DNA of 32,000 bases from positions 690,001 to 722,000 of the forward strand of contig NZ_CP080507.1 of NCBI RefSeq assembly GCF_019464535.1, in the 5' to 3' direction. Origin of the DNA: Horticoccus luteus. Lineage in GTDB: Bacteria > Verrucomicrobiota > Verrucomicrobiia > Opitutales > Opitutaceae. Position numbers and translations under genes: made by a program. Under the pieces are notes generated by a model that had not been told where the DNA came from, made no database searches, and saw nothing but the letters and a program-made list of their open reading frames with translations. Every line of letters starts with the position of its first letter. Positions within the stretch are counted from its first letter, which is position 1. Positions 452 through 28,617 of this stretch are shown piece after piece.

Positions 452-3097
452 ATGAATACCTCTAAATTGTTTTGTTGTTGGTTTAGCGCGCTGGCTGCCT
501 TGGCCGGCGCATCGCTTGGTTTCGCGGGCGGCGGTCCTTATATGATCCAAAAGGTCCAGACGTTTACCCAGACCAGCGGTGCCGGCGCCGTGGCGGATTT
601 GGGCCAACCCTACTCTTTTCGCGCCAATTCCCTCGTTGAGTCCAACCTGCATCTACCGGACGGCAGCACGCAAACCTTGGTGCTTCAGGATGAAGGAGGC
701 GGTGAAGTGTCTTACGGGCTGCATTTAGACTTCGCGAACCAAGCCGCGCTCGATGCCGCCTATCCGAATGGCATCTATACGATCACGGGCACGGGAATCC
801 CGACGCTCAGCTTCAATTTGACCGGCAATCTCTATCCGACGGCGACGCCGCAGATCACCAACGGCACGTGGAGCAACGGAGGCCTTCTGGTCATTAATCC
901 GAATACGTCCACGACCCTCAACCTGAGCAACTTTTCGACCTACGCCACGGCGGGAGTTGCCGGTCACATGAGCTTGTCGCTCGGTGGCAACAACGTCGAC
1001 CTTTCACAGGATATACTCACGCAGGCGGCGTTCGATATCGACGTTTCGGCCACGCCGTTTACGTCCGTCACCGTCCCGGCGGGAAGTCTGACCGAGGGGC
1101 GGATTTACAACCTGCAATTGGATTTCGACACGGCGACGACGTTTGACCTCATGACGATGCCGGACAGCGGCGTGATTGCCCTCTACGAGAAACATCTGGA
1201 CGTCTGGGTCGTCGCGCTGGCCGATCCTTCCTCCGCACCGCCGGTGCCGACCATTTCACAGCAACCGGCGAACCAGACCGGCCCCTTGGGCGGGTCGGCG
1301 ACGTTTACCGCGATGGTCAATACGCATACGATGATGCAGGGCGATTCGCGGACCGCCTGGTATTTCAACGGCGCCGAAATCCGGTTCGATAACAACAGCA
1401 CAAAGTATCACTACGATTTCGTCGGCGGCGGAATCGGCCTGACCGTGAACAACATCACGCAGGCCGACGTGGGTGTTTACTCGCTGAAGTTCGTCAACGC
1501 AGGTGGCATCGCGGCCAGCGTCGGCGCGACGCTGGCAATTGGCGCCGCGGCGCCGCCGGTCATCACCGCGCAACCCATTGCGCAGATGCTCAACGCGGGG
1601 CAGAGCGCATTTTTCTCCGTCAGCGCCACCGGCTCTTCGCTCAGCTATCAATGGACGAAGGATGGAGTCGCTCTTCCGGGAGCGACCAGCGCCACCCTCA
1701 ATCTGAACGGCGTGCAAGTGTCTGATGCCGGCGATTACGCCGTCGCGATCGTCAGCGATGGCGGGACAATCGTGAGCGACTCTGCGACGTTGACGGTATT
1801 TGCCGCGCCGGTGATCACCGCGCAGCCGACCAGCGTCGCCGCGCCCACGGGCGGCGTGGCCACGTTCACGGTGAGCGCCACCGGTGGCCCGGCGCCGGCC
1901 TACCGGTGGGCGAAAAACAACGTGCTGATTGACGGCGCGACCAACGCCTCGCTCACCTTGACCAACCTCCAAAGCGCGGACGCCGGCGACTATGCCGTGA
2001 CCGTCGCCAACGATCGCGGCACCGTCGTGAGCAACGTCGCCACTCTCACGGTTACGACGACGCCATCGCTCCCCGTGTTCGTGGCGCAACCGGCGGATGC
2101 GTCCGATGTCGTGGGCGGTTCGGTGACGCTCACCGTCACGGTCAACGCACTGCCGGCGGCGACGTATCAGTGGCTCAAGAACGCGACGCCGATCGCGGGT
2201 GCGACCAACGCCTCGCTGGTCCTCACGTCGCTCCAGAGCACCGATGCAGGCACCTACGCGGTTGTGGCGACGAATTCGCAAGGCTCGACCACGAGCGCCA
2301 ATGCCATCGTGACGGTTGGGGCAACGAACTTCCTTTCGAACCTTTCGGTGCGCGCCGCGATGACGCAGGGGCAAACGTTGATCATGGGTTTTGTGGTCGG
2401 GGGCGGAGCGAAGCCAGTGCTGGTGCGCGTGGCAGGACCGGCGCTCAACACCTATGGGTTGACGGGCGTGGCCGATCCGCACTTCACGCTTTACGACGAG
2501 CATGCAGTCGTCGCAGGTGCGAACGAAGATTGGGACAGCACGCTGGCGCCCCTCTTCATGCAGCTCGGCGCTTTCCCCTTTCTGCCGGGCAGCAAGGACG
2601 CGGCGATGCAGGCGACGATCACCGGACCGTATACGGCGCAGGCCTCCGGGACGGGCAATGGCACGGTGCTGGTCGAAGCCTACGACGCCGGGACCAACAA
2701 TGGTTCGCGCCTCACCAATGTCTCGGCCCGTTACCATGTGGGCACAGGCAACGATATTCTGATCGCGGGCTTTGCCATCGCGGGCACGGGCACCAAGCAG
2801 GTGCTGATTCGCGCCGTCGGGCCGACACTGGCCGGTTTTGGCGTGCCCGGCGTGCTCGCGGATCCGCAGTTCACCGTGTATGACCAACAAGGAGCGGTCA
2901 TCGCGAGTAATGATAACTGGGATGCTTCGCTGGACAGCATGTTTACGACGCTGGGAGCGTTTACTTTGACCCCCGCGAGCAAAGACGCCGCCGCGCTGGT
3001 CACGCTCGACGCCGGCAAAACCTATACCGTCCAAGTCTCAGGCGTGGCCAACGGCACAGGTGAAGCGCTGATCGAAGTTTACGATGCGCAGCCCTGA
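452..3097 (+). CDS. Secreted 881-aa protein with four parts: signal peptide, an unassigned N-terminal region, four Ig-like (I-set type) modules, and a tandem pair of the shared C-terminal module
   Basis: N-terminal signal peptide: MNTSKLFCCWFSALAALAGASLGFA. Four ~83-aa repeats carry the I-set pattern (ITAQP..G..a.F.V.A.G....Y.W.K.g..i.GAT.a.L.L..lq..DAG.Y.V.v.N..G...S..A.LTV). Two C-terminal modules start at NLSVR and NVSAR. A strong terminator follows. Confidence 0.85.
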   Translation: MNTSKLFCCWFSALAALAGASLGFAGGGPYMIQKVQTFTQTSGAGAVADLGQPYSFRANSLVESNLHLPDGSTQTLVLQDEGGGEVSYGLHLDFANQAALDAAYPNGIYTITGTGIPTLSFNLTGNLYPTATPQITNGTWSNGGLLVINPNTSTTLNLSNFSTYATAGVAGHMSLSLGGNNVDLSQDILTQAAFDIDVSATPFTSVTVPAGSLTEGRIYNLQLDFDTATTFDLMTMPDSGVIALYEKHLDVWVVALADPSSAPPVPTISQQPANQTGPLGGSATFTAMVNTHTMMQGDSRTAWYFNGAEIRFDNNSTKYHYDFVGGGIGLTVNNITQADVGVYSLKFVNAGGIAASVGATLAIGAAAPPVITAQPIAQMLNAGQSAFFSVSATGSSLSYQWTKDGVALPGATSATLNLNGVQVSDAGDYAVAIVSDGGTIVSDSATLTVFAAPVITAQPTSVAAPTGGVATFTVSATGGPAPAYRWAKNNVLIDGATNASLTLTNLQSADAGDYAVTVANDRGTVVSNVATLTVTTTPSLPVFVAQPADASDVVGGSVTLTVTVNALPAATYQWLKNATPIAGATNASLVLTSLQSTDAGTYAVVATNSQGSTTSANAIVTVGATNFLSNLSVRAAMTQGQTLIMGFVVGGGAKPVLVRVAGPALNTYGLTGVADPHFTLYDEHAVVAGANEDWDSTLAPLFMQLGAFPFLPGSKDAAMQATITGPYTAQASGTGNGTVLVEAYDAGTNNGSRLTNVSARYHVGTGNDILIAGFAIAGTGTKQVLIRAVGPTLAGFGVPGVLADPQFTVYDQQGAVIASNDNWDASLDSMFTTLGAFTLTPASKDAAALVTLDAGKTYTVQVSGVANGTGEALIEVYDAQP
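1238..2326 (+). repeat. Four tandem Ig-like (I-set type) coding repeats inside the 881-aa protein
   Basis: Repeat units begin PPVPTISQQP, PPVITAQPIAQ, APVITAQPTSV and LPVFVAQPADA. Each unit ends in a-LTV or a-TLAI. DNA-level similarity is visible at the unit starts (ccggtSatcaccgcgcaRcc). Confidence 0.65.
2327..3094 (+). other. Tandem pair of the shared C-terminal module, copies A1 (2327-2704) and A2 (2705-3094)
   Basis: Hand alignment to the pairs at 20006-20842 and 27769-28614 shows these shared motifs: N-[LV]-S-x-R, GF[VA][VI], [VI]L[VI]R..GP.L, DP.[FL]., N[ED][DN]W, SKDAA, G.YT, and [LV][IV]E[VA]Y[DE] near the stop codon. Confidence 0.75.
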
Positions 3098-9764: not shown

Positions 9765-10820
9765 ATGCTCTTCGCCACCAAGCCCAAAGGCTATTTTGTC
9801 GCGCGGAACGCCGATCAGGTGTTGCTCGCCCGGACGTCGAATCCGACTGAATCGCCTGTGACGATCGAGGCGTTGCGGAGCTGTGCGGCGGACGATGCCG
9901 CAGCGATGGCGGCGGCGCTGGGGGAATTGCAACCGAAGAAGGCGCCCAGCGGCTACTTGCACGCGGTCTGCGGCGTGCACCCGGAACGGCAGGTGATCCG
10001 ACGGGCGACCTTGGAGTTAAAGCGTGTGAAGGAGCCTGGCTATCTGGAAGAGGCATGCGCGACGCAGTTGCGCATCGAACCGAAGGATTACGTGCTGGCG
10101 GTGCTTAACGCCAACGACGGCAGCGACTATGATGTCGCGAAAGCCACCGGCAAAGAGGTGACGGTGTGCGGATTGCGGCACGATGACATCGCCACCACGC
10201 AGGAAGCGCTGCTGGCGGCGGGCATTTATCCGGAGCGGCTGGAGCTGGGGGCGGTGGCCGCGATCGGCGCATTGACGGACGTGTTGACGTTTGCCCATTC
10301 GAAGTCGCCCACGCTCTTGCTGGAATTTGGCGCGGAGATGACGAACTCGTTTATCGTGAGCGCGAACGGCCTCGAGGCGGCGCGGCCGATCGGGAGCGGA
10401 CTGCAGTCGATGGTCCCGATCGTGCAAAAGGAATTGGGTCTGAAGGACGAGGAGGCCGCGGCGAAGCTGTTTTACTCGGGCGCATTTGATTTCAGCGGCC
10501 TCGGACCGGCGTTGATTAAGAAGCTGCTGAAGGAATTACAGGCTTCGATCGGGTTTTACGAAGTGCAGACCGGCCAGTCCGTCGGGCAGTTGGTCTGCAC
10601 ACAGCTGCCGCCGGTGCTGGCGTGGTTGCAGGACGCCGTGGCCAACGCGCTGGGCGTGACGGTGCTGACGGTTGAGTTTGAGCCGTGGCTGCAGTCGCGG
10701 CGGATCGTGTTGCCGGAGACGTTGCGCGCGACGGTCACGGATACGCGTTGGTTGGGGTTGTTCGGATTAATGGCACGATTTGAAGGCGCCCATGCGGAAA
10801 ATTCTCCAGCGAAAGCCTAA
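9765..10820 (+). CDS. pilM: PilM-like actin-fold assembly protein (type IV pilus / T2SS-like alignment complex)
   Basis: The size is 351 aa. The central segment [52 protein letters not shown] matches the PilM pattern (lDiGa..T...v..g....R.i..GG......ia.....s..eAE..K). It is the first gene of an M-N-O-P-secretin order. Confidence 0.6.
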
Positions 10821-11427
10821 GGCGGCGACTGCGCCCATGGTGCCGGCGTGGCACCCGAATTTCCGCGACTACGAACGTCTGCCGGACGTGAAAGTCGTGC
10901 GCACGGCGTTTCTCGTGAACGGCGCTGCGATCGTGGTGATGACGGCGCTCTTGTTGTGGGTGGCGTTCAACGAATACCATTTGCGGGACTTGCGCAGCCG
11001 GATCGAGGCGTGGGACGCGCAAATCCACCGGAACCGGGTCGCGAGTGCGCGCGCGGTGGCGCTCTATAAAAAGTTTCAAACGGATGAGGCGCGGCTGCGG
11101 GAGATCGACGCGTTCGTAAAATCGAAACCGGCGTTTTCGCCGTTGATGTTGCGATTGGGGGCGACGCTGCCGGCGACGATGGCCCTCGATGCCGTGACTT
11201 GGCGCGACGGCAGTTTGTCGCTGCGGGGCACGGTTCGAGGTTCGCCCGATGCGGCGAGCGGGTACGCGTCAGCTTACGTGGAGCGGTTGCGCACCGATGC
11301 GGAGTTGGGACCGCTGTTTGAAAGCGTCACCCTGACCAGTGTGGCGCGGCACGCAGTCACGGGCCGGCTGCTCGTGGAAATCGTGTTGGCCGGGAAGGGC
11401 ACCTCCAAGCCTGTGGCCAAGAAATAA
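10792..11427 (+). CDS. pilN: PilN-like bitopic membrane protein
   Basis: It has a short cytoplasmic N-terminus, one TM helix (FLVNGAAIVVMTALLLWVAF), a coiled segment, and then a ferredoxin-like C-terminal pattern (LDAVTWRDGSLSLRGTVRGS...YVERLR...FESVTLTSV). A GAAGG Shine-Dalgarno sequence lies 5 nt upstream of the ATG at 10792. The gene overlaps the end of pilM. Confidence 0.55.
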   Translation: MRKILQRKPKAATAPMVPAWHPNFRDYERLPDVKVVRTAFLVNGAAIVVMTALLLWVAFNEYHLRDLRSRIEAWDAQIHRNRVASARAVALYKKFQTDEARLREIDAFVKSKPAFSPLMLRLGATLPATMALDAVTWRDGSLSLRGTVRGSPDAASGYASAYVERLRTDAELGPLFESVTLTSVARHAVTGRLLVEIVLAGKGTSKPVAKK

Positions 11428-11428
11428 C

Positions 11429-12001
11429 ATGGCACTCACCGGACCCCAACTGCTGGCGGCGCTGAAAAAGCATCCCGTCGCCACTCTCGCCATCGCCGTT
11501 TCGATTGGTTGCGCGGCACTCCTTTATTTTCGCCAAGGCGACAGTGAGGCGCTGACGGCGGATCTGGAGCAAAAGACGCAGGAAGGCGAGCGGCTGGAGG
11601 CGAACATCAAAAATTCGACGCAGCTCACGGAGCAATCGGCGGCGTTGAGCGAGGCGATGAATGCGGTCGAAGGCCGGCTGATTCGTGCAGCGAACCTCGC
11701 GGATAACCTCCAATATTTTTACCGGCTCGAATCCGAAACCGGCGCCAAACTGATCGACTTGAAGCAAACGGGAGCGGAGTTGCCAGCGGTCAAGGGGCCG
11801 AAGCCGTTGTTTCAGCCGATCGGTTTCACGGTGGGATTGCGCGGGAGCTATGATCAGGTGCTTGAGTTTGTGCGCAAGGTGGAGAACGGCGCGCCATTTT
11901 CGCGCATCGTCGCCGCGACCGTCACGAGTCCGCCGGAGTCTCTCGACAAAGGCTCGTTCGTCACGCTCAGCCTCAACGTCGAACTGCTCGGATTGCCATG
12001 A
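11429..12001 (+). CDS. pilO: PilO-like bitopic membrane protein
   Basis: I take the ATG at 11429, 1 nt after the pilN-like stop. The protein has one TM helix (VATLAIAVSIGCAALLYF), a coiled coil, and then a PilO-like C-terminus (FQPIGFTVGLRGSYDQVLEFVRKVENGAPFSRIV). The upstream part of the track ORF (from 11339) overlaps the pilN-like gene and is discounted. Confidence 0.55.
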   Translation: MALTGPQLLAALKKHPVATLAIAVSIGCAALLYFRQGDSEALTADLEQKTQEGERLEANIKNSTQLTEQSAALSEAMNAVEGRLIRAANLADNLQYFYRLESETGAKLIDLKQTGAELPAVKGPKPLFQPIGFTVGLRGSYDQVLEFVRKVENGAPFSRIVAATVTSPPESLDKGSFVTLSLNVELLGLP

Positions 12002-12501
12002 GGATACGCTGGACTCTTCTTTTGCTGATCGCCCTCGCCGCGCGCACGGCGTTCGGCGCCGCGCGCGCTGATGTCCCGCCCCCGGCTGACCGGGCCCCCG
12101 TGATTGAGCTGGCGCGACGACTGGCGCAACCGCCCAAAGTCGAACCGCTGGCGGTGGATCTGCCGCAACCGTTTAACCCGCCCGGCTTCGACCTGCCGGA
12201 TCCCTCCGAACGCCGTCCGACGGCCGCGCCGGCCGCCGGCGAACCGGCCGCTCCCGTGACGGATCGGCAGGTGCTGGAAAAGATCGCGGCGCGCATCCGG
12301 CCCTCGGGCCTCGTGATCATCAACGGCGAATCGCTGCTCATCTTCGGCCAGAAGCGCCTGAAGGTCGGCGATCATCTGATCGTTACTCTCGATAAAACCG
12401 ACTACGACGTGGAAATCACCGCGATCGATTCGGCCGGCTACTCGCTCCGGCTAAATCGCGACGAAATCACGCGTTCCCTGAACCCCGGCCATACTCCATG
12501 A
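11998..12501 (+). CDS. PilP/GspC-HR-like periplasmic protein (signal peptide, Pro-rich linker, small beta domain)
   Basis: The signal peptide MRIRWTLLLLIALAARTAFGAA has no lipobox Cys. The C-terminal GLVIINGESLLIFGQKRLKVGDHLIVTLDKTDYDVEITAIDSAGYSLRL resembles the PilP/GspC secretin-contacting beta domain. ATGA overlaps occur with both neighbouring genes. Confidence 0.45.
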   Translation: MRIRWTLLLLIALAARTAFGAARADVPPPADRAPVIELARRLAQPPKVEPLAVDLPQPFNPPGFDLPDPSERRPTAAPAAGEPAAPVTDRQVLEKIAARIRPSGLVIINGESLLIFGQKRLKVGDHLIVTLDKTDYDVEITAIDSAGYSLRLNRDEITRSLNPGHTP

Positions 12502-14309
12502 GCTCACGTCCGCTCCTTACGACTCTCCTTGCCCTGACTGCCTTGTCGCTCTCGGCGCAGCCGGCGACGCCTGCGGCCACCCCGGTGACCCCGGTGGTGG
12601 TGACGCCTGCGCCCGCGCCCGTGCCGGTCAAAGTCATCCCGGCGTCGGCGCACCCCGTCGAAACGGTCACGATCAAGGAAACCGCGGCGGCCACCCCCGC
12701 CGTGAAATCCCGCGACGCAGCCGGCCACGATACGCTGTCCGTCGATTTTCCCGATACCGAGATTCGTGACATCCTGCGCAACGTCGCCGATCTGTTCGAA
12801 TTGAACGTCGTGATCCCCGATACGTTGCAGGGGAAGACTTCGATCAAGCTTCGCGACGTGTCGTGGCGCCAGATTTTCCAAGTTGTGCTCGCACCGGTGA
12901 ATTTCACCTACGTGGAGGATGGCAACATCATCAAAATCATCTCGCTTGATTCCCTTCAGCAGGAGCCGGTCGCGACCGAGGTGTTCATGCTCAACTACGC
13001 CCGGGCGTCCGACCTGCTCGCGTCCGTGTCGCCGCTGATCGACGCCGCCGCCGGCGGCCGCATCGTGGTCGATGCCCGCAGCAACAGTCTCGTCATCACC
13101 GAGCGGCCGTCGCGCATGAATCGCATCCGGCCGATCTTGGAGCAACTCGATCGGGCGACTGATCAGGTGATGATCGAGTCGAAGTTCGTCGAGGTGACCG
13201 ACCGCGACATCAAGAACATCGGCGTCAACTGGGCTTCGCTGGCCGGCTACAACATCACGGCGGGCGGCGCGGGGGAAAATGGCGCGTTTGGCAACGTCTC
13301 GCGCAGCCGCGGCCAGAGCACGCAAAATGGCAACTCGGGCAATACCGCGACGACCAGCGGCACCAATAACAGCAGCAGTTCCACCGGCACGAACGGCCAG
13401 TCCAACGGCGCCACGACCACGAACACCGTTACTTCAACGGGGGGCATCGTGACGTCCACCGGCACCACCAGCCTCAACACAGGCCTGACGGGCAGCACCA
13501 CGACGACGACCACCACGGGCACCACCGGCGCGGTCAACGACACCTTCAATGTCCTCCAGTCGCTCACCAACACCGGCGCCACCGACCGCGCGCTGTCGGC
13601 GGTGTTTTCGGCCGACCAATTCAAACTCGTGCTGAGCGCGTTGCAGAGCTTGAACACCACGAAGATCGTTTCGAACCCCACGATCGTCACGCTCAATAAC
13701 ACCGAAGCGTCCATCAACGTCGGTGAGGAGCGGCCGATTCCGAATTATTCCTACAGCGAGCAGAAGGGCACCTTCGAAGTCAGCGGGTTTACCTTCAAAC
13801 CGATCGGCGTGCTGCTCAAAGTCACCCCGCAGGTCAACGGACGCGGCTTCATCAAACTCAGTCTTTCCCCCGAAGTCAGTCAGCCCAACGGCAGCGTGGT
13901 CTTCGGTGGTGCGAGTGGCACGGAGATTCCGATCATCGCCACGCGCCGCGCGACCACGCAGGTCTCGCTGAAAGACGGTTACACGATGGGCATCGGCGGC
14001 CTGCTCACGCAGAACGCCAACACCGGCCAGACGAAAGTGCCCGTCCTCGGCTCGATCCCGCTCGTCGGGCGGCTTTTCCGCTCGGACAGCAAGGATGTGA
14101 CGACGAGCAATCTCATCATCTTCATCACCGCGAAAACGATCAGTGCTGACGGTGCGCCCGTTGAAGAAGTGTTCAGCTCGCAGCAAGTGCGGCAGTTGGA
14201 AATGAAGCGGGAAGACCTGCCGGGCTATCGCGACGGCGCGGATCCATTCGTGAAAACGATGACACCAGCCGAGGCAAAGGCGGCGAAGAAAGCCAAGCAG
14301 CAGCAATGA
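12498..14309 (+). CDS. pilQ: Outer-membrane secretin (PilQ/GspD family) with N0 (STN) and N1 domains and a low-complexity insertion
   Basis: Signal peptide, then STN/N0 (LSVDFPDTEIRDILRNVADLFELNVVIPD...IKLRDVSWRQIF) and an N1/NolW-like domain (VFMLNYARASDLLASV...IVVDARSNSLVITE). The secretin core is VMIESKFVEVTDRDIKNIGVNW, KIVSNPTIVTLNNTEASINVGEE and VPVLGSIPLVGRLFRS...NLIIFITAK. Confidence 0.9.
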   Translation: MSSRPLLTTLLALTALSLSAQPATPAATPVTPVVVTPAPAPVPVKVIPASAHPVETVTIKETAAATPAVKSRDAAGHDTLSVDFPDTEIRDILRNVADLFELNVVIPDTLQGKTSIKLRDVSWRQIFQVVLAPVNFTYVEDGNIIKIISLDSLQQEPVATEVFMLNYARASDLLASVSPLIDAAAGGRIVVDARSNSLVITERPSRMNRIRPILEQLDRATDQVMIESKFVEVTDRDIKNIGVNWASLAGYNITAGGAGENGAFGNVSRSRGQSTQNGNSGNTATTSGTNNSSSSTGTNGQSNGATTTNTVTSTGGIVTSTGTTSLNTGLTGSTTTTTTTGTTGAVNDTFNVLQSLTNTGATDRALSAVFSADQFKLVLSALQSLNTTKIVSNPTIVTLNNTEASINVGEERPIPNYSYSEQKGTFEVSGFTFKPIGVLLKVTPQVNGRGFIKLSLSPEVSQPNGSVVFGGASGTEIPIIATRRATTQVSLKDGYTMGIGGLLTQNANTGQTKVPVLGSIPLVGRLFRSDSKDVTTSNLIIFITAKTISADGAPVEEVFSSQQVRQLEMKREDLPGYRDGADPFVKTMTPAEAKAAKKAKQQQ

Positions 14310-14353: not shown

Positions 14354-17300
14354 ATGAAACCTTGGTGGAAACTTCTCTGCGGCGCAGCGCTGTCGGCGGC
14401 CCTCGCGCTGACTGGCTTCGCTCAATCGCAGTCCCCGATCAACGTCACGATCATCGGCATTGGCGTGAATGGCGTGCCGACCGCGCCAGCCAACGAACGC
14501 TCGGGACCCGCCGGCACGCCGATCGAAATCGAGGCGCAGGGCCTCGGCACCTCGATGATCACGAGCTTCACTTATTCAGCTTACGTGAACGGCGTGCATA
14601 TCGGCACTTCGCAAACCGCCATCAACCCGCCCAGCACGTTTATCGTCGAGTGGACGCCACCGGCACCGGGTGCGTATTTCATCACCGTCAAAATCGATGA
14701 CGGCACCAGCACCGCCACGTCGCTGCCGGTTCGCTACTTCGCGACCGGCACGACGGTGAACAGCCCAGTCGACGGCACGCTCGTCCCCGCGGGATCCTCC
14801 GTGGTTTTGAAAGCCGACGCCACCGGCGCCCAGGGTTTCGTGAAACAGGTGCAATTTTATGCCAACGGCGTGGCGATCGGCGCGGCGGATACGACCTATC
14901 CCTACTCGTTGATCTACACGCCCCAAGGCGCTGGCGGCACGAGCTACAGCATCACCGCCGTCGCCACCGACAACAATGGGGCAATGTTGAGCACCAGCCC
15001 GGCCATCACGCTCACCACCGTGACACCCATTCCGGCCCCGCCGACGAGCGTCATCAGCACGCCCGAAGATGGAGCCGTCATCGCGGTTCCCTCCGCGACC
15101 TCGCCGCTCGCGGTCGTGGTCGACGCCAACAGCAGCAGTGGTTTCGTGAGCAAAGTGGAACTGTATATCGACGGCGTGCTGTCGGATACGAAGACCACTT
15201 ATCCATATAAGTTCACGTGGACGCCGCAGGTCGTGGGCACGTATCACCTCGTGGCGTTGACCTATGACGACAAGAATAACGTCGTGGCTTCGAGCGCCGG
15301 CGTCGGCGGTGGCGCCACGCCGACCCCGACGACAGTCACGATCGCGGCCCCGCCGACCGTGACCATTTCCGCGCCGACGGCGAACAGCACCCTGACCAGC
15401 GGCACGCCCGTGCAGGTCAGCGCGACCGCCACGGATCCAGGCGGCCATGCGATCACCTCCGTGCAATTTTTCGTGGACAGTGAATTTGTGGGCGTGGTCA
15501 GCACCCCGAGCGCGGGATCGACCTACACGATCACGACGACGTTGTCGCAGAAAACATCGTCCGACGGCACGCCGATTCCCTCCAGCATCACCGCGCTGGC
15601 GACGAACAATGTCGGCCTCGCGACAATTTCGAGTGCCATCACGGTCAACGTGACGGCCGGCGGCGGCAGTGGCGGCGGCACCGTCATTGGCAATGCGCCG
15701 ACGGTCAGCGTCACCGCGCCCGTCGCCGCCACGCCACTCGCCGTCAACGTGCCGCACACCTTGGCGGCCAACGCGACCGACACCGATGGCAACATCGTGT
15801 CCGTGCAGTTTTTCGTGAACGGCACCTCGGTCGGCACGGTGAACACCTATCCCTACTCCCTTTCCTGGACGCCCGTCAGCTTGGGCGCGTACGCCATCAC
15901 CGCCGCGGCGACCGACAACGACGGCAACTCCGTCACGAGCAGCACAGTGAGCGTCAGCGTGGTCGACCCCAGCGCCAGCGCGCCGACGGTCGTGGTGACG
16001 AGTCCGGCCAACCTCGCCTCGATCGCGGTCAACGCACCGCAGACGCTGATTGCGAGCGCGACGGACGATGTCGCGATTTCGGGGGTGCAATTCTACGTGA
16101 ACGGTCAGCCGCAAGGGTTGCCGATCACCGCGTTTCCGTATGCCACCTCCTGGCTGCCCGCCTCACCCGGCACCTACGCGATCAAAGCGGTGGCGAGCGA
16201 TAACGTGGGCAACCAAACCACTTCGGCGACGAACGTCATCACCGTCACCGCGACGCCGCCGGCTTCAGCGGTCGTGGTCATTACGGCTCCATCCTCCGTG
16301 CCGACCATCTTTGTTAACAGCGCGCATACCGTGTCGGCGGACGCGGCGGTAGCCAATGGCAACATCGTTTCCGTACAGTTCTTCGCCAATGGAGCTCCGA
16401 TCGGCAACGTGAACAATTATCCGTATGCCGTAAGCTGGACGCCAGTCACACCCGGCACCTACGCCCTCACTGCGGTCGCCAAAGACAATCACGGCCTCCA
16501 AACGACTTCGCCCGATCAAGTCGTCACGGTCGTGGCTGGTTCGGCGCCAAGCGTTACGCTGGTCGCTCCTGCGGACGGCGCGAGCGTCGCGCTGGGCGGG
16601 ACACAGAACATTACGGCCAGCGCTAATGGGGGTTCCGCGAGCGTTGCGTCCGTGCAATTCTTCTTGAACGGTAACCTCCTTGGGGTCGCCACGAGCGCGC
16701 CTTACACGATCCAGTGGACGCCATTGACACTGGGAACTTACGCGTTGACCGCCGCCGTGACGGACACAAATGGACATACCGTCACGAGTGCGCCGATCTC
16801 TGCGACAGTGGTCGTGCCCAAGCCCTCGCTCGCGTTCACTCCTCCGACGAGCGTTACTGTCAATACCCTGCAAACACTGGTCGCTACCGCGACGCCGGTC
16901 GCCGGCACTTCCGTTACGCAAGTGGAGTTTTTTATTAACGGGGCTTCGGTCGGGGTCGACACGCTGGCGCCCTATACGATGCCTTGGACGCCGGCTGCCA
17001 CAGGCACCTATACACTCTCAGCTATTGCGACGGATAGTCTGGGCGGTCAGTCAGCACTTGTCTCGGTTCCGGTCAGCGTCGTCGCATTGCCGCGCATCGA
17101 CGTGGTCTCTCCCAATGGCGGCGCCACCTACGTGCTCGGCACTCCTACCGCTCTGGTTGCCAATGTAACCGTGGGCAGCGGCCTCGTGGCCGGCGTTTCA
17201 TTCTTCGTCAACGATGTCAACGTCACGCAAGGTGATGAACTGCTCGCGCCTGTCGCTCTTCAGGGCAGCGGGTCGCCTTTCTTTTCGCAAAATTGGCTCC

Positions 17301-20300
17301 CTGCTGCGGCTGGCAACTACAGTGTCGTTGCGAAGGTGCGAGATACCAACGGTAACACGGCCACCTCAACTCCGGTGGCCATCACGATCACGTCAGGTGT
17401 GGCCCCGACGGTAGCCATGGCCACGCCTGCGAATGGTGCCATACTGTCTATTAATGTCCCCGTGATGCTCTTAGCGAACGCGAACTCGACCACAGGTTCG
17501 ATCTCCCGTGTCCGTTTTTTTGCGAATAACATGACCGTCGGTGATGCCGTTACGGAATACCCCTATTTTGTCTCCTTCACGCCGCCGTCCCCTGGCGTTT
17601 ATGTGCTCACAGCACAAGCGACGGATAATCTAGGCAATATCACCACCAGCGCGCCGCATATCGTCACGGCAACGCCCGCGGCGACTTCGATTGCGATCAC
17701 GGCGCCGACGAACGGAGCGACCGCCCTTGTCAACAAGACTCACGACATCACAGCGACAGTCACAGCGGGCAGCGTTCCGGTCAGCAACGTGGAGTTTTTT
17801 GTTGATGGCGTTTCCATCGGAGTGGCGACGCAGATGCCCTATACCGTTTCGTGGACTCCAACGCTTGCCGGTATGCACATTGTCAAAGCGGTCGCAACTG
17901 ATCTGGTGGGAGCCAAGACATCGTCGCTCGCGGTAAGTCTCGTCACGCCGCTAAGCGTCGCAATCACCTCGCCGGCCAGTCTAGGCACGGTCGCTGGTGG
18001 TGCCGTAACACAGGTGACGGTGACCGCGACGAGCACGAATGGTTATCCGGTGAACGTGCAGCTTTTCGCCGACGACAAATACGTTGGCGAAACGACCATC
18101 ATGACCGCCGGCGGGTCCGGCACGATCACCTTCACTCCAGTGCAGAAGAAAATCATGGATGCCAACGGCAACCTGGTCTTGGTGCCCACGCCCTTGAGGG
18201 CGGTCGCCAGCGACGTGAGCGGAGTAACCGCCACCTCTGCGGAGATTCAGGTCAACGTCACGGAAGGCGGCAGCGGGACGGGCTCGACGGTCGTCGGCCA
18301 GCCTCCGGTGGCTGCGTTGATTACGCCCACGGCCAGCACAACCTTGCCGGTCGCCGCTCCGGTCACGCTTGGTGCCACGGCTTCCGATCCCGACGGCAAT
18401 ATCACGTCGGTTATCTTCCGGGTGAACGGCCAGGTGTATGCCACCCTGAACGCATATCCTTACTACACGTTGTGGACGCCGACGAATCTCGGCACTTACG
18501 CGATCGACGTCAAAGTCACCGACAACGACGGCAACACCACGATCAGCGCCCCAGTGACGGTGTCCGTCATCGATCCCGGCCCGGGATTGCCGACGGTCGC
18601 GATCACAAGTCCCGCCAACAACGCGGTCGTCACCGCCGGGACGATTACAAACGTGACCGCGTCCGCCACGGATGACATCAGCGTGGCGCGCGTGCAGTTT
18701 TACGTGAACGGCCAGCCGCTCGGCGAGGCCATCACTGCTTCGCCTTACAACGTGAGCTGGACGCCTTCGACTCCGGGCACTTACACGCTGGTCGCCCGCG
18801 CGACGGACAACATCGGCAATCAGGCGACATCCAGCCCGGTCACGGTGACCGTTGGCACCAACGCGGCCCCGGTCGTGGCGTTGACGACACCCACTTCGGG
18901 TTCGAGCGCCGTCAGCGGGATGCCGGTAAATCTCACCGCCACTGCGAATGACGCCGACGGCACCGTCGTGCTGGTGCGTTTTCTGGCGAACAATATCGAA
19001 GTCGGGCGGGCGACGACGGCGCCATTTACGGTCGCGTGGACACCCGGTTCGGCGGGTGCTTATACGCTCGTGGCGGAGGCGACGGATAATTCGAGCAATG
19101 TCGCGCTGTCGGCGAGCGCCAGCCTTACGGTCGTGGCAAACCAAGCGCCGACGGTGCGCGTGACGGCGCCGAGCGACGGCAGCACGTTGGCGCAGGGCAC
19201 GGCCACCACGATTACGGCTCAGGCGGCGGACGCCGATGGCTCTGTCACCTCAGTCAAGTTTTACGTCAACGGAGCGCTGCTCGCCACGGGGGCGGCGGCA
19301 CCTTACAGCACGCCTTGGACGCCGTCGTCAGCGGGCTTGTATCGCCTCAACGCGGTCGCAACGGACAACGCCGGGATCACCACGACGTCGGCTGACGTTA
19401 ATATCATGGTCGTGAGTCCGGGCAGCACGGCGCCGGACGTCGTCTATAAAGGCATCTACGGATCAGCGGAGCAGGGCACGTTCATGATGATCAACATCGG
19501 TGGAAAGCATGCGGCGTTGATCGGCCAGTCGAGCAGTGGGCCGGCGAAAACGTATTTCCTACCGGCAGTCACATTGAACAGCACGGGCGGATTCGACGCG
19601 ATGCTGGGCGGCAAAGCTTTTGCCGGGCAGGCGACCGAGGGCGCGGCGACCGCCACGCTGGGCGGCAACGCCGGCTTGGTCTTCATCGCCCCGACCGTCC
19701 CGGCGGCCGGAAGCGCCGTGGCATCCGGTTACTACACGGGCAATCTCACCGGCGCGCCTGCAAGCCAGGTGGCGGCTATCGTCGCGCCCGACGGCTCGAT
19801 CGAGGTTTATGTCGCCAATGGCACTTTCACGGACGCGGGCGCCGGCACGGTGGACGGAACCGGCGCATTCCGGGTGACGACCGCTGCGGGCAATACGCTG
19901 AGCGGCACCGCCGATCCGGCGACAGGTTTCCTCACGGGCACGCTCACCGGCAGTTCGGGTGGCGCGTTCACCGGCGCGATCGCTTCGGGCTCCAGTTTGA
20001 GTGATGGCGCGCTGCTCAACGTCTCGACGCGCGGACTCGCGAGTGCGGGCGATAAAGTGCTGATTGCGGGCTTCGTCGTGGAAGGCACGACACCGAAGCG
20101 CATGCTCGTGCGCGCCGCAGGCCCGTCACTGGGTCTGGCGGGGCAAGTCGCGAATCCCTCGGTCGCTCTGTTCAATCAGGCGGGAGCAGCGGTGGCCTCC
20201 AACGACGATTGGGCCACGCCGGTCGGGGTGGGCGCGGCCACGCAGGGCGACATCGCGGCAGCGGCGAATCTGGTGGGCGCGTTTCCTTTCACCACGGCAT

Positions 20301-20845
20301 TCGATTCCGCCGTGCTGACGACGCTCGCCCCCGGCGTTTATACGGCGCAGGTGAGCAGCGGCTCAGGCACCGCGGGGATCGCGCTTGTGGAGGTTTACGA
20401 CGTCGATACGCCCGCCTCATTTTCGGCGAAGAAAATCGTCAACCTCTCCACGCGCGGACAGGTCGGCGCGGGCGGAGATGAAGGCTTGATCGCGGGCTTC
20501 GTGATTTCCGGCCATGCGCCGAAGAAGGTGCTGATTCGCGGGGCCGGGCCTTGGCTCGCGCAATTCGGTGTCGCGGGTGTGCTCGCGAACCCCAAAATCT
20601 CGCTCTACCGCACGAATCCCCCGGCCGCGCCCACCTTGGTGCGCGAAAACGACGACTGGGAGGTGGGGAACGACTCCGCGCTCATCGTGGACGCGACGGC
20701 GAAGGCTCGGGCGGCGCCGTTTGACGCGGGCAGCAAGGACGCGGCGATTCTGCTGCGGCTGCCGCCCGGCGTTTACACGGCGAATCTCACGGGCGTCGCG
20801 GGCGCAACGGGCATCGCGCTGATCGAAGTCTACGAAGTGCCGTAA
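14354..20845 (+). CDS. Giant secreted 2163-aa protein with four parts: signal peptide, ~17 tandem bacterial Ig-like modules, a Gly/Ala/Thr-rich bipartite middle module, and a tandem pair of the shared C-terminal module
   Basis: I take the ATG at 14354, which has a GAAGG Shine-Dalgarno sequence at 14342-14346 and encodes the signal peptide MKPWWKLLCGAALSAALALTGFAQS. The recurrent module pattern is A.A.D.dG.I.sVqFfvNG..vG...t.PY...WtP...G.Y.l.A.AtDn.G..ttS. The C-terminal modules start at NVSTR and NLSTR. Confidence 0.9.
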   Translation: MKPWWKLLCGAALSAALALTGFAQSQSPINVTIIGIGVNGVPTAPANERSGPAGTPIEIEAQGLGTSMITSFTYSAYVNGVHIGTSQTAINPPSTFIVEWTPPAPGAYFITVKIDDGTSTATSLPVRYFATGTTVNSPVDGTLVPAGSSVVLKADATGAQGFVKQVQFYANGVAIGAADTTYPYSLIYTPQGAGGTSYSITAVATDNNGAMLSTSPAITLTTVTPIPAPPTSVISTPEDGAVIAVPSATSPLAVVVDANSSSGFVSKVELYIDGVLSDTKTTYPYKFTWTPQVVGTYHLVALTYDDKNNVVASSAGVGGGATPTPTTVTIAAPPTVTISAPTANSTLTSGTPVQVSATATDPGGHAITSVQFFVDSEFVGVVSTPSAGSTYTITTTLSQKTSSDGTPIPSSITALATNNVGLATISSAITVNVTAGGGSGGGTVIGNAPTVSVTAPVAATPLAVNVPHTLAANATDTDGNIVSVQFFVNGTSVGTVNTYPYSLSWTPVSLGAYAITAAATDNDGNSVTSSTVSVSVVDPSASAPTVVVTSPANLASIAVNAPQTLIASATDDVAISGVQFYVNGQPQGLPITAFPYATSWLPASPGTYAIKAVASDNVGNQTTSATNVITVTATPPASAVVVITAPSSVPTIFVNSAHTVSADAAVANGNIVSVQFFANGAPIGNVNNYPYAVSWTPVTPGTYALTAVAKDNHGLQTTSPDQVVTVVAGSAPSVTLVAPADGASVALGGTQNITASANGGSASVASVQFFLNGNLLGVATSAPYTIQWTPLTLGTYALTAAVTDTNGHTVTSAPISATVVVPKPSLAFTPPTSVTVNTLQTLVATATPVAGTSVTQVEFFINGASVGVDTLAPYTMPWTPAATGTYTLSAIATDSLGGQSALVSVPVSVVALPRIDVVSPNGGATYVLGTPTALVANVTVGSGLVAGVSFFVNDVNVTQGDELLAPVALQGSGSPFFSQNWLPAAAGNYSVVAKVRDTNGNTATSTPVAITITSGVAPTVAMATPANGAILSINVPVMLLANANSTTGSISRVRFFANNMTVGDAVTEYPYFVSFTPPSPGVYVLTAQATDNLGNITTSAPHIVTATPAATSIAITAPTNGATALVNKTHDITATVTAGSVPVSNVEFFVDGVSIGVATQMPYTVSWTPTLAGMHIVKAVATDLVGAKTSSLAVSLVTPLSVAITSPASLGTVAGGAVTQVTVTATSTNGYPVNVQLFADDKYVGETTIMTAGGSGTITFTPVQKKIMDANGNLVLVPTPLRAVASDVSGVTATSAEIQVNVTEGGSGTGSTVVGQPPVAALITPTASTTLPVAAPVTLGATASDPDGNITSVIFRVNGQVYATLNAYPYYTLWTPTNLGTYAIDVKVTDNDGNTTISAPVTVSVIDPGPGLPTVAITSPANNAVVTAGTITNVTASATDDISVARVQFYVNGQPLGEAITASPYNVSWTPSTPGTYTLVARATDNIGNQATSSPVTVTVGTNAAPVVALTTPTSGSSAVSGMPVNLTATANDADGTVVLVRFLANNIEVGRATTAPFTVAWTPGSAGAYTLVAEATDNSSNVALSASASLTVVANQAPTVRVTAPSDGSTLAQGTATTITAQAADADGSVTSVKFYVNGALLATGAAAPYSTPWTPSSAGLYRLNAVATDNAGITTTSADVNIMVVSPGSTAPDVVYKGIYGSAEQGTFMMINIGGKHAALIGQSSSGPAKTYFLPAVTLNSTGGFDAMLGGKAFAGQATEGAATATLGGNAGLVFIAPTVPAAGSAVASGYYTGNLTGAPASQVAAIVAPDGSIEVYVANGTFTDAGAGTVDGTGAFRVTTAAGNTLSGTADPATGFLTGTLTGSSGGAFTGAIASGSSLSDGALLNVSTRGLASAGDKVLIAGFVVEGTTPKRMLVRAAGPSLGLAGQVANPSVALFNQAGAAVASNDDWATPVGVGAATQGDIAAAANLVGAFPFTTAFDSAVLTTLAPGVYTAQVSSGSGTAGIALVEVYDVDTPASFSAKKIVNLSTRGQVGAGGDEGLIAGFVISGHAPKKVLIRGAGPWLAQFGVAGVLANPKISLYRTNPPAAPTLVRENDDWEVGNDSALIVDATAKARAAPFDAGSKDAAILLRLPPGVYTANLTGVAGATGIALIEVYEVP
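14432..19420 (+). repeat. Array of ~17 tandem ~95-100-aa Ig-like coding repeats inside the giant gene
   Basis: I counted seventeen occurrences of the core [VI]-x-[FYL]-[FY]-[VAI]-[ND]-[GSDN] plus PY..(W)TP signature, for example VQFYANG, VELYIDG, VQFFVDS, VQFFVNG, VQFYVNG, VQFFANG, VQFFLNG, VEFFING and so on. Confidence 0.8.
20006..20842 (+). other. Tandem pair of the shared C-terminal module, copies B1 (20006-20431) and B2 (20432-20842)
   Basis: B1 runs GALLNVSTRGLASAGDKVLIAGFVVEG...MLVRAAGPSL...NDDW...GVYTAQV...IALVEVYD. B2 runs KIVNLSTRGQVGAGGDEGLIAGFVISG...VLIRGAGPWL...NDDW...SKDAAILL...GVYTANL...IALIEVYEVP-stop. Confidence 0.75.
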
Positions 20846-22625: not shown

Positions 22626-22805
22626 TTGGCGGAAGAACTGGCAGGAGGGAGCGAGGGCACCTGATGCGCGCGTTGACGTGCCGAGGGTGGGTGCGGCGTC
22701 AGGTGTCCGGTGCGCGCGTGAAACTTTAGGAAAACACCTCATGACGCGCCTCCGGGATGAGATTCAGTTTGCGCCTTTCGGTGCGGAGGATTGGATTGCA
22801 TCCGC

Positions 22806-23441
22806 ATGAGCGTGAGCAAGGCACTCGGTAAGACCTTCGTGGCGACGCCGGAGCGTCAGCACGAGGCCGACGCCGATTGGGCGGTGGTGCAGCGCGTGCA
22901 GAAGGGGAACGTGGCGGAGTTCGACGAACTCATCCGCAAATATCGGGAGCGGGTGTATGGCGTCATTTACCACATGACGTCGAACCGGGAGGATGCGGCT
23001 GACCTGACCCAAGACACGTTCATCAAGGCGTTTCAATCGATCCACCGTTTCCAAGGGCAGTCGTCGTTTTTTACGTGGCTGTATCGGATCGGCGTAAATT
23101 CGGCGCTGACACATCTGAGGAAAAGCCGTTTGCGGTCGTTTTTCAGCTTCGACCGGCTCGATGAAGAGCAACGCACATCCGCCGAGGTAATTGCGGCGTT
23201 AACGGACGCGACGGGAGCGGATAGGGAAACATTCGTGCATGAGCTTCAGCAAAAATTGAACGAGGCGATGCAGAAATTGTCTATCAAGCATCGCACTGTG
23301 ATTACTTTGTTCGAGATCGATGGCTTAGGCCACCAAGAGATTGCGGAAGTCATGAACTGCTCGGTCGGCACCGTTCGCTCCCGCCTGCATTACGCCAAGC
23401 AGTTGCTGCAGGCGGAATTACAACCTTATATGCGCCAATGA
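22806..23441 (+). CDS. ECF-type RNA polymerase sigma-70 family factor
   Basis: Region 2 is YRERVYGVIYHMTSNREDAADLTQDTFIKAFQSIHRFQGQSSFFTWLYRIGVNSAL. Region 4 is LFEIDGLGHQEIAEVMNCSVGTVRSRLHYAKQLL. I prefer the ATG at 22806 to the TTG at 22791. Confidence 0.85.
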   Translation: MSVSKALGKTFVATPERQHEADADWAVVQRVQKGNVAEFDELIRKYRERVYGVIYHMTSNREDAADLTQDTFIKAFQSIHRFQGQSSFFTWLYRIGVNSALTHLRKSRLRSFFSFDRLDEEQRTSAEVIAALTDATGADRETFVHELQQKLNEAMQKLSIKHRTVITLFEIDGLGHQEIAEVMNCSVGTVRSRLHYAKQLLQAELQPYMRQ

Positions 23442-26280: not shown

Positions 26281-28617
26281 ATGCGTCGCGTTTCCCGTTT
26301 CCTGTGGCTGATCGTTCTGTTCCTCGTCGCGGTGATCGGGATGAGCGTGGTGCCACGATCAGTTCTGCGAAACGGATGGGCTGTTCGTGCGCCGAGTCAG
26401 CCCGTGGCCGAGGTCGCACCACACAAGATCACTCCATCGCTAGCGAAGAACGGAGCGGCCGGGTTTGGTGCACGCGCCTTGTTTGCCTATACGGCGGCGC
26501 CGTCCAACGCTGCGCAGTTGGAAAAGGAAGATCCCGCCCCGGCGAAATGGCTCCGTTACGTGGAGCTCAATCCGGCGATGGTGCGTGGCAAGCAAGCGCC
26601 CTTTTGGAAAGGCCCGGCCGAGCGGAGGCTCACGATTCCGCTGCCCGATGGGCGGCAACTATCCGTGCAGCTCGATCCCGCCCGCATGCGGGGCGCACAG
26701 CACTTCGTAGCAACGGGAGCCATCGAGGGGCGCGAAGGCAGTCGCGTCATCTTCGCTTCGGTGGACGGCATTATGCAGGCTTCGGTGCGCGACCCCGAAC
26801 TCGGAACGTTCACCCTGCGGCAATACGCTGATGGCACGACGCAGTTCTTCGAAGTCGACGAGGGCCTCATCCCCGCGTGCGGCGGCGATCCGTTGCCGCG
26901 ACCGCTGATCGCGGCGGGCATGCCACGGGCCTCGCGGCGGCCGACCGCCGCCGCCGCCGGAGGGGCGAACGACGTTTTGGGGGAGGGAGGGGAAACTCAT
27001 TTTCCCGAGGGCAGCGCCGTTGATACGCCGGTCGTGCAGGTGATGATGCTGTATTCACAGGCGGTGCTGACGAGCACTGTCACCCCGTCGGTCGTGCAGG
27101 GCGTGTTCGACATTGGAATCCAGAAGGTGAACGACGCGATGGCATTCAGTCATGTGAACGCGCGCGTCGAGTTAGTGCGTGTGGCGCAGGTCGCTTATAA
27201 CGAGACGGCGAGCGCGTCGAGCAAGGTGCAGAGCGATGCCCTCGCAGCCCTGCGAGCGCCCGGCGACGGACAGATGGACGAGATTCATGACTGGCGAAAC
27301 GAGGCCGGCGCCGACTTGGTGTGCCTCGCGTTGCGGCGGGCGGATGCCAGCAGCAGCGGACTCGGCTATCTGCTCCAGACGGCGGGTGATAACGACAATG
27401 CTGATTTCGCGTTCTCGGTCGTCCAATACGATTACATCGGCAGTTCCGACGTGGTGCCGCATGAACTCGGGCATAATTTCGGTTGCGCGCATGATCGTGA
27501 AAACGCCGATCACGCGGGGGCGTTCAGCTACAGTTACGGTTATCGATTCTACGGGGCGAACTCGAAGCAATACCGCACGATCATGGCGTATGCGCCCGGG
27601 TCCGGCGTGGGATTCTATTCGAATCCGAATATCAACGCGCCCGCGCCGATCGCGGTGCCGCTCGGGATCGCGCACGGCTTGCCGGGTGAATCGGATAATG
27701 CCGGCACGATCTCGCAAACAGCGTTCGAGGTTTCGCAGTTTCGGTTGCAGCAGCAAAATCCTTCGCTCGGCTCTCTCGTGAATGTTTCCACCCGCGCGTA
27801 TGTCGGGGACGGAGAACAACAATTGATCGGCGGCTTCGTGGTCGCCGGGGCCGACAGCAAACGGATCCTGCTTCGGGCGATCGGTCCGACGCTGGCTGCA
27901 CCCGTCTTTGGCGTGACGGATGCAGAAACGAATCCTTCGCTCACGATTCACCAACTCGGCGTCGCCGGGACGGTGGCCGCGAACGACGACTGGGGATTGC
28001 AAACGCTGCCGGCGGCGGCCTCGGACGTGGTGACGGCGAGTCAAACCGTGGGCGCGTTTGCGCTGCCGAACGGAAGCCGCGATGCGGCGTTGCTCGTCGA
28101 CCTGCCGGCCGGTGGTTACACCGTGAACGTCACAGGCGAGAGCCACGGCGAGGCGCTGGTTGAGGCTTACGAACTCGATGGGGCGGTGGGGAAATTAATA
28201 AATCTTTCCACGCGCGGTTACGTCGAAACGGCGCGGCCGATGATTGGGGGATTCGTCATTCATGGATCGGCGGGCCGCGCGAAACGCGTGCTCATTCGGG
28301 TGCTCGGGCCCACACTGGAAAGCTACGGGGTCGCGAATGCGTTGAACGACCCGTATCTCTCGCTTTACGACGGCGGCGGCCAGTTGTTGTTGAACAATGA
28401 CGACTGGAGCGCGGACGCGCAGGACGTGATCAGCACGCATGCCGAGGAGGCGATTGTCGCGACGGGGCTCATGCCGTTGAACCGCCGCGAGCCCGCGGTG
28501 TTGCTGGATCTCGTCCCAGGCGCCTACACGGTGGTCGTGAAACCGTTTGAGCGGTTGCCGGACCAGCCCGCTCAGCCGGGCGTGGGCATTGTCGAGGTTT
28601 ACGAAATCGATCAGTGA
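26281..28617 (+). CDS. Secreted reprolysin/ADAM-like (M12B-type metzincin) zinc metalloprotease, followed by a tandem pair of the shared C-terminal module
   Basis: The N-terminal signal/anchor is MRRVSRFLWLIVLFLVAVIGMSVV. The zinc site HELGHNFGCAHD (27460-27495) has the form HExxHxxGxxHD. A Met-turn candidate, YRTIMAY, lies downstream. The C-terminal modules start at NVSTR and NLSTR. Confidence 0.85.
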   Translation: MRRVSRFLWLIVLFLVAVIGMSVVPRSVLRNGWAVRAPSQPVAEVAPHKITPSLAKNGAAGFGARALFAYTAAPSNAAQLEKEDPAPAKWLRYVELNPAMVRGKQAPFWKGPAERRLTIPLPDGRQLSVQLDPARMRGAQHFVATGAIEGREGSRVIFASVDGIMQASVRDPELGTFTLRQYADGTTQFFEVDEGLIPACGGDPLPRPLIAAGMPRASRRPTAAAAGGANDVLGEGGETHFPEGSAVDTPVVQVMMLYSQAVLTSTVTPSVVQGVFDIGIQKVNDAMAFSHVNARVELVRVAQVAYNETASASSKVQSDALAALRAPGDGQMDEIHDWRNEAGADLVCLALRRADASSSGLGYLLQTAGDNDNADFAFSVVQYDYIGSSDVVPHELGHNFGCAHDRENADHAGAFSYSYGYRFYGANSKQYRTIMAYAPGSGVGFYSNPNINAPAPIAVPLGIAHGLPGESDNAGTISQTAFEVSQFRLQQQNPSLGSLVNVSTRAYVGDGEQQLIGGFVVAGADSKRILLRAIGPTLAAPVFGVTDAETNPSLTIHQLGVAGTVAANDDWGLQTLPAAASDVVTASQTVGAFALPNGSRDAALLVDLPAGGYTVNVTGESHGEALVEAYELDGAVGKLINLSTRGYVETARPMIGGFVIHGSAGRAKRVLIRVLGPTLESYGVANALNDPYLSLYDGGGQLLLNNDDWSADAQDVISTHAEEAIVATGLMPLNRREPAVLLDLVPGAYTVVVKPFERLPDQPAQPGVGIVEVYEIDQ
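27769..28614 (+). other. Tandem pair of the shared C-terminal module, copies C1 (27769-28191) and C2 (28192-28614)
   Basis: C1 runs GSLVNVSTRAYVGDGEQQLIGGFVVAG...ILLRAIGPTL...NDDW...SRDAALLV...GGYTVNV...EALVEAYE. C2 runs KLINLSTRGYVE...MIGGFVIHG...VLIRVLGPTL...NDDW...GAYTVVV...GIVEVYEIDQ-stop. Confidence 0.75.

Follow-up and report, generated by a model that had tools for sequence, protein, structure and literature searches.

The window analysed here, a 32,000-nucleotide stretch of the Horticoccus luteus genome (contig NZ_CP080507.1, positions 690,001 to 722,000; ~64% G+C), encodes three plus-strand proteins, here called carriers A, B, and C, whose translated open reading frames (ORFs) all have a tandem pair of the same module as their C-terminal end. 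The features are as follows; module positions were confirmed by alignment, with scores from a hidden Markov model (HMM).

452..3097, plus strand: carrier A, 881 amino acids (ORF translation).
2327..2686, plus strand: module A1, first of the pair in carrier A, 120 amino acids (alignment; HMM envelope 147 bits).
2705..3094, plus strand: module A2, second of the pair (alignment; HMM 177 bits); the protein ends ...EVYDAQP.
14354..20845, plus strand: carrier B, 2163 amino acids from M17, or 2179 amino acids from the ATG at 14306.
20006..20401, plus strand: module B1 (alignment; HMM 166 bits; NCBIfam model NF038127, 23.4 bits).
20429..20842, plus strand: module B2 (alignment; HMM 177 bits); the protein ends ...EVYEVP.
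26281..28617, plus strand: carrier C, 778 amino acids (ORF translation).
27769..28173, plus strand: module C1 (alignment; HMM 178 bits).
28189..28614, plus strand: module C2 (alignment; HMM 159 bits; NF038127, 24.4 bits); the protein ends ...EVYEIDQ.

Outside the pair the three carriers are unrelated, as an initial annotation, made from the sequence alone, had proposed. Carrier A consists of a signal-like N-terminus, ~230 amino acids without a family, four Ig_3/I-set immunoglobulin (Ig) domains (Pfam; Ig_3 E=2e-41, I-set E=3e-33), and the pair. In carrier B, a signal peptide is followed by 17 Ig-like Big_7 modules (Pfam, E=3e-179, 17 stretches), ~180 amino acids without a family, and the pair, while carrier C has a signal- or anchor-like N-terminus, a reprolysin-type M12B metalloprotease domain (Pfam Reprolysin_5, E=4e-17; a Mep72-like match, E=1e-20, fell under cutoff), and the pair. 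Neither the region between the signal peptide and the Ig array of carrier A (539-1240, residues ~30-260) nor that before the pair in carrier B (19460-20000, residues ~1720-1900) matched a Pfam or NCBIfam model; the latter region is rich in Gly, Ala, and Thr. The Sec-type N-termini previously proposed were recovered as hydrophobic, signal-like segments in A, B, and C, in the case of C only when translation begins at the ATG at 26281. The public protein corresponding to carrier C (P0152) begins instead at a TTG at 26479 and is without the hydrophobic N-terminus, and the public protein identical to carrier B (P0156) begins at 14354 (M17), not 14306; these gene starts have therefore not been called consistently. 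All three chains do have the short tails that had been noted, which we count as three to four residues past the final E-x-Y (YDAQP, YEVP, and YEIDQ) rather than one to three past the last motif.

The homology of the six copies is demonstrated, their similarity being well outside what chance would give. Pairwise, they are 32-48% identical over 116-130 aligned residues, with 24 columns invariant across all six, and the least similar copies, A1 and C2, still align with a BLASTP E=3e-14. A six-frame scan of the window with an HMM of the six copies matched exactly three ORFs, with two modules each, and found no copy beyond these six. Translation, alignment, and the HMM scan thus agree with the six copies in three pairs of the initial annotation, and the motifs that it listed proved to be the conserved columns of a wider family. 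Among the Arg and acidic or Asn columns, conservation is 0.96 at R9, 1.00 at R36, 0.93 at D/N53, 0.95 at N69, 0.90 at D/N70, and 0.91 at D/N71; for the rest, it is 1.00 at W72 and D/E102, 0.96 at Y114 and E131, and 0.91 at Y133.

That the family would be large was also borne out: an exhaustive profile search (E<=1e-3) returned 18,512 clusters at 50% identity, including 10,157 at E<=1e-30. All copies were located in the 150 family proteins with the highest scores, a set that is biased to multi-copy proteins. Two copies were found in 102 of these proteins, four in 39, three in 7, and six in 2, nearly always as adjacent pairs with a linker of 2-9 residues. A pair lies 10 or fewer residues from the protein end in 142 of the 150. 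Additional pairs occur in 48 proteins, typically directly past the signal peptide (a "bookend" arrangement) or internally, and a few proteins (P0131, P0133, and P0143; P0139 and P0140) comprise a signal peptide and pairs alone, without cargo. Six proteins extend 200-780 residues past the last pair, and in P0264 the sole pair is N-terminal and is followed by 781 residues.

Because the 150-protein list favors multi-copy proteins, we also took a census that is independent of score, in which metagenome contigs were scanned for the terminal heptapeptide V-E-V-Y-E-x-P followed by a stop codon. The module was present in 104 of the 112 ORFs so identified. Exactly two modules were found in 73 of the 80 ORFs having enough upstream sequence, the rest being three genuine singletons and four frameshift fragments, so that the two-module share is 73 of 76 interpretable ORFs and genuine singletons make up ~4%; extra pairs were found in none of the 80. 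In addition, ~0.8 Mb of related contigs held 12 unselected carriers, among which were five C-terminal pairs, one internal pair (L012), and one frameshifted single module. Taken together, the census and the mapping indicate that the pair is the unit in ~95% of cases and that the C-terminus is strongly preferred, but that neither is obligatory. The earlier description of the module as always a terminal tandem pair therefore holds in the window and is only ~95% true of the family: invariable pairing fails for the genuine singletons, and strict C-terminality fails for the complete N-terminal or internal pairs in 48 of the 150 best-scoring proteins and for P0264.

The genuine singletons (L013, L023, and L029) have NHL-repeat, enzyme-like, and Ig/He_PIG cargo, and the L013 module is without the N-D-D-W motif. 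A degenerate partner hidden beside the apparent singletons was considered and rejected, as none was detected with the HMMER filters off. For 293 of 330 modules, the nearest relative in another protein holds the same position in the pair. Two anciently distinct module types, a and b, were likewise rejected (mean identities: a-a, 0.44; b-b, 0.45; a-b, 0.43); partners within a pair are most alike, at 0.51 versus 0.43-0.45 for modules in general.

Carriers throughout the family are exported proteins with diverse cargo, in keeping with the initial annotation. An N-terminal hydrophobic segment was found in 75 of 116 full-length members, compared with 9 of 116 in a control window. The Pfam domains that co-occur with the module in 76 representative proteins include Ig_3/I-set (19), He_PIG (7), NHL (5), SBBP, Big_7, fn3, BspA-type leucine-rich repeats (LRRs), Laminin_G_3, and one reprolysin; the cargo is thus mostly adhesin or stalk modules (Ig, beta-propeller, LRR), with few enzymes. 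The named relatives belong to Opitutaceae/Verrucomicrobia metagenome-assembled genomes (MAGs), a taxonomic breadth that rests on few named matches.

Existing sequence models were of limited help in placing the module. No Pfam model covers it, whether the full proteins A, B, and C, 122 members taken singly, or the family consensus is used as query; among the members and the consensus, only GBD_IRG7_N and PPC (the pre-peptidase C-terminal domain) register, both far under cutoff. For PPC (PF04151, cutoff 25.9 bits), the consensus reaches 12.8 bits (E=0.24), weak matches occur in 8 of the 122 members, and full-length A, B, and C give no match. Nothing significant was found in the PDB by sequence with the six-copy profile, a 122-sequence pair profile, or the consensus, and a tblastn search of plasmids with the consensus returned nothing relevant. 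Of the curated sequence models, just one detects the module: NCBIfam NF038127 (DVUA0089 family, "FDP_fam"), with a curated cutoff of 29 bits; it matches 88 of the 122 members (best E=9e-17) and the family consensus at 34.0 bits. The module is accordingly absent from Pfam, as the label "unassigned" in the initial annotation implied, but not without a match in NCBIfam. With this model, the pairs alone score 34.8 bits (B), 27.3 bits (C), and no match (A), the single window copies 0-24.4 bits, and the full-length proteins all fall under the cutoff (A and B, no match; C, 19.9 bits). The match is partial, spanning approximately positions 5-107 of 150 for the consensus and 35-113 for the window copies.

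DVUA0089 itself, encoded on the megaplasmid of D. vulgaris, is a protein of 205 amino acids in which a central domain stands between a signal peptide and a canonical PEP-CTERM tail; its C-terminal end is PTPEPSTIILMGLGFGALALLRRNRQRDV. The central domain has the same DP-x-L-x-L...DD...L-x-P-G-x-Y core, and a profile of 330 modules aligns to DVUA0089 with an hhalign probability of 65% (E=6e-5). The only published fact on DVUA0089 is its place in the sigma-54/DVUA0057 regulon, in the class of exopolysaccharide and biofilm synthesis (PMC4641369); we found no description in the literature of the module or of NF038127. As DVUA0089 has its own PEP-CTERM tail, the domain there is a passenger and not the sorting signal. 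By sequence, the module appears to be a distant branch of the DVUA0089 ("FDP") family, whose members are exported, as the module carriers are, and are functionally uncharacterized, as is the module. The two also differ: DVUA0089 is a small, single-domain protein with PEP-CTERM, whereas the window proteins are large, bear the module in tandem, and end in YDAQP, YEVP, or YEIDQ without PEP-CTERM, a transmembrane segment, or an Arg tail.

The fold class was demonstrated with structural models. AlphaFold2 modeled the B pair with a mean predicted local distance difference test score (pLDDT) of 91 and a predicted template-modeling (TM) score (pTM) of 0.85, and B2 alone with a pLDDT of 93.9; each module is predicted to have eight strands and one helix. 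When the B pair was compared with the PDB using Foldseek, the best match was the tandem collagen-binding domain (CBD) s3a-s3b of ColG (5IKU; E=3.8e-8, probability 1.00). The TM-score over the whole pair is just 0.29-0.33 (root-mean-square deviation 18 Å), and the orientation of the two modules therefore differs from that in s3a-s3b. With a single module as query, the top matches were to cCPE, the claudin-binding domain of the C. perfringens enterotoxin (E=5e-4, TM 0.45-0.56), accompanied by the PPC domain of a B. anthracis collagenase (5SV5, TMt 0.66), ColG s3b (1NQJ, TMt 0.63), Ca-bound LipL32 (TMq 0.65), YPM, the C-terminal jelly-roll of Tk-SP, and calpain domain III, all at ~10% identity. 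The matches to the ColG CBD, the collagenase PPC domain, and cCPE have a probability of 1.00 each, with TM-scores of just 0.45-0.66. Capsid proteins and Ena fibers, with low TM-scores, also appear among the jelly-roll matches. Of this set, cCPE, PPC, ColG, LipL32, Tk-SP, and calpain domain III are all ligand-binding and/or Ca2+-binding sandwiches.

On these models, which superpose on solved PPC/CBD structures, the module is predicted to be a ~130-residue beta-jelly-roll sandwich of the PPC/collagen-binding-domain type; the fold search thereby returned what the initial annotation had offered as its "less exotic" alternative. Module and PPC/collagen-binding domain share (i) the beta-jelly-roll fold (probability 1.00, TMt up to 0.66), (ii) a frequent tandem, C-terminal occurrence in exported proteins, (iii) the theme D-P-x-L-x-L...N-D-D...P-G-x-Y-x-x-x-V, and (iv) a conserved acidic cluster that, from its sequence, appears compatible with Ca2+. 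They differ in that the module has ~130 amino acids against ~70 PPC model positions, adding an N-terminal N-x-S-x-R strand, an L-I-R-x-x-G-P strand, and a helix, and in that its cargo is mostly not peptidases and its inter-module arrangement is not that of s3a-s3b. cCPE is similarly a C-terminal, receptor-binding jelly-roll, but it is a single copy in the toxin of a Gram-positive pathogen, with ~10% identity to the module and no sequence-level signal. The conserved positions D/N53, N69, D/N70, D/N71, D/E102, and E131 are the sole indication of a putative Ca2+ site.

A genuine, if weak, PPC domain was seen in an Opitutaceae MAG (L006, 6535-8314), in a subtilase located ~2 kb upstream of a module carrier. 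The C-terminus of this subtilase follows the same loose theme (L-D-T-T-L-A-V-Y...A-A-N-D-N-D-G...T-T-Y-H-I-A-V-D-G), and its score against the module profile was not significant.

The ends of the carriers are stereotyped. Exactly three residues follow E-x-Y in 103 of the 150 best-scoring proteins and 85 have a terminal Pro, typically as VEVYE[VL]P, of which 20825-20845 is the example in the window; with its stop codon, the heptapeptide nearly suffices to identify a family member. A different ending was seen in five proteins that do not end in the pair (P0130, P0142, P0155, P0159, and P0244), whose C-terminal 200-340 amino acids are alike. This tail contains one Ig domain and two EF-hand/dockerin-like repeats (D-T-N-L-D-G-K-I-S-L-F-E-L-T-R-V-I-E-L-Y-N-T-R...R-T-G-x-Y...E-D-G-F), ends ...G-P, and is matched by EF-hand models only under cutoff; it is a candidate for another C-terminal module, also unannotated, in these organisms.

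The surroundings of the carriers were considered as context, and include the following cluster, which does not belong to the module system.

9765..14309, plus strand: type IV pilus-like cluster (pilM/N/O/P-secretin), immediately preceding carrier B.

Its secretin is recognized by Pfam (E=2e-45), with PilQ as the best match at 256 bits, just under cutoff. Also present are a PilM-like ORF (TIGR01175, E=3e-9), two small membrane-protein ORFs, one of them weakly GspM/PilO-like, and a 167-amino-acid ORF; Pfam recognizes none of these four small ORFs. Carrier B starts 45 nucleotides past the cluster on the same strand. No secretin or pil gene was found within 10 kb of six other carriers, and the neighbors of A and C are housekeeping genes; a functional link between the module and the secretin/type IV pilus cluster was rejected, since the adjacency is absent at the six other carriers. 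Elsewhere in the window, 3256-9320 encodes an AddB-like PD-(D/E)XK nuclease (955 amino acids) and an AddA/UvrD-like helicase-nuclease (1071 amino acids) that overlap by 19 nucleotides, a recombination-repair pair unrelated to the module. At 22791-24262, an extracytoplasmic function (ECF) sigma factor of 216 amino acids overlaps by 4 nucleotides a 274-amino-acid ORF without a family match, which is possibly its anti-sigma factor.

The interpretation that we favor, at about even confidence, is that the pair is a shared, position-tolerant binding or tethering module with a PPC-like fold, possibly stabilized by Ca2+. We base it on the fold class and the conserved polar and aromatic columns, on the N-terminal, internal, bookend, and cargo-less arrangements, and on the separate sorting signal of DVUA0089. 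Two modules and their 2-9 residue linker would constitute one inherited unit that has been added to Sec-exported proteins (Ig stalks, beta-propellers, LRRs, and the occasional protease), in most cases at the very C-terminus. We infer that a conserved face, comprising the invariant Trp, two Tyr, two Arg, and the Asp/Asn/Glu cluster that may hold Ca2+, would bind a shared extracellular ligand, for which a polysaccharide or matrix component belonging to the envelope or biofilm of the producer itself is the most plausible candidate. We favor such a self polymer on the grounds that most of the cargo is itself adhesin-like and that many paralogues have the module in common. In this way varied passengers would stay attached to the cell surface or the matrix, with any extra pairs contributing avidity or cross-links. 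Several points weigh against this interpretation. The proposed face and Ca2+ site are read from alignment columns and the ligand is deduced; the link to DVUA0089 depends on a match to part of the model (positions 5-107 of 150); and placement is extremely C-terminal, within 10 residues of the end in 142 of 150 proteins and without extra pairs in the 80 census ORFs. Stereotypy of this kind is not expected of a plain binding domain, and the C-terminus could be an element that is recognized.

The stereotyped end, for which a plain binding role does not account, keeps alive the proposal of the initial annotation that the module is a sorting or secretion tag. On this account, the C-terminal pair and ...VEVYE[VL]P-COOH would be read by a Verrucomicrobiota outer-membrane translocation or attachment machinery, in the manner of the C-terminal domains (CTDs) of the type IX secretion system (T9SS) in Bacteroidota. 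Near-exclusive C-terminal position, diverse cargo, and many paralogues (three in 32 kb, and the 12 unselected carriers in ~0.8 Mb) fit it, as do the position of carrier B directly downstream of a secretin and weak, sub-threshold matches to Por_Secre_tail in 11 of 122 members. The T9SS tail models (TIGR04183/PF18962) reach at best 16 bits against a cutoff of 23; the 11 members just mentioned were matched with NCBIfam, and Pfam gave weak matches in 3 of 122. The T9SS CTD resembles the module as a C-terminal beta-sandwich that, within one lineage, occurs on numerous exported proteins whose cargo is unrelated; it differs in being a single, strictly C-terminal copy, whereas the module is a pair that also occurs N-terminally and internally and was seen in no T9SS context. 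The obligatory C-terminal position that marks sorting tags is contradicted by the N-terminal-only pair of P0264, the internal pair of L012, and the 48 of 150 proteins with extra pairs. Also against a tag are the pair-only proteins, a fold class shared with binding domains, the PEP-CTERM signal that the sequence relative DVUA0089 has in addition to the domain, and the lack of a secretin or pil gene near the six other carriers; no candidate for a dedicated machinery was found. A strictly C-terminal tag is therefore not supported, given the pairs found away from the C-terminus and a structural match to characterized binding domains that is strong in probability (1.00) and weak in TM-score (0.45-0.66) and identity (~10%); we regard a sorting or secretion role as unlikely. 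A more specific form of it, to which we give slightly less credence still, makes the pair with its free ...V-E-V-Y-E-[VL]-P-COOH the recognition element of an undescribed Opitutaceae/Verrucomicrobiota pathway for outer-membrane export or surface attachment, a functional analogue of the T9SS CTD with a PPC-like fold, in which pairs located at the N-terminus or internally would act as secondary copies for binding.

Pairs might instead bind one another, building a surface lattice, fibers, or cell-cell contacts that need no separate ligand. Bookend proteins, which have a pair at each end, and proteins without cargo that comprise two pairs or three modules would then act as cross-linkers, and the fixed inter-module geometry predicted by the models (pTM 0.85), the greater likeness of partners within a pair (0.51 versus 0.43-0.45), and the jelly-roll matches to capsid proteins and Ena fibers are all compatible with such association. 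Those matches have low TM-scores, however, and multi-pair proteins number 0 of 80 in the score-independent census; we consider homotypic association improbable, to about the same degree as the specific export pathway. Finally, the pair could be a folding or stability cap, or a removable pro-domain, that aids its passenger during export and is perhaps later cleaved. Its likeness to PPC domains and to the Ca2+-binding C-terminal jelly-roll of Tk-SP points this way, as does its place at the C-terminus of exported proteins, carrier C being a protease. Most of the cargo, however, consists of non-enzymatic Ig or propeller arrays needing no pro-domain, cargo-less and N-terminal pairs exist, and the strong polar and aromatic conservation points to a ligand site, leaving this the least probable of the explanations considered and, in our judgment, very unlikely.

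The fold class of the module and its architectural logic, PPC-like C-terminal tandems on exported proteins, are known already; what is new is a very large sequence family that curated models capture only marginally. Pfam has no model for it and that of NCBI passes over the majority of its members, which leaves thousands of large exported proteins with the label "hypothetical" in Opitutaceae-type bacteria, a group frequent in soil, peat, and fresh water. This annotation would gain from a dedicated domain model with the tandem pair as its unit, which would also flag the likely surface or matrix proteome of the lineage. Should the stereotyped C-terminus prove to be a sorting signal, an export route not yet known would be implied; if, instead, the ligand of the binding or tethering module that we favor is a polymer of the producer's own envelope or matrix, the pair would be the lineage's general way to retain its surface proteins.

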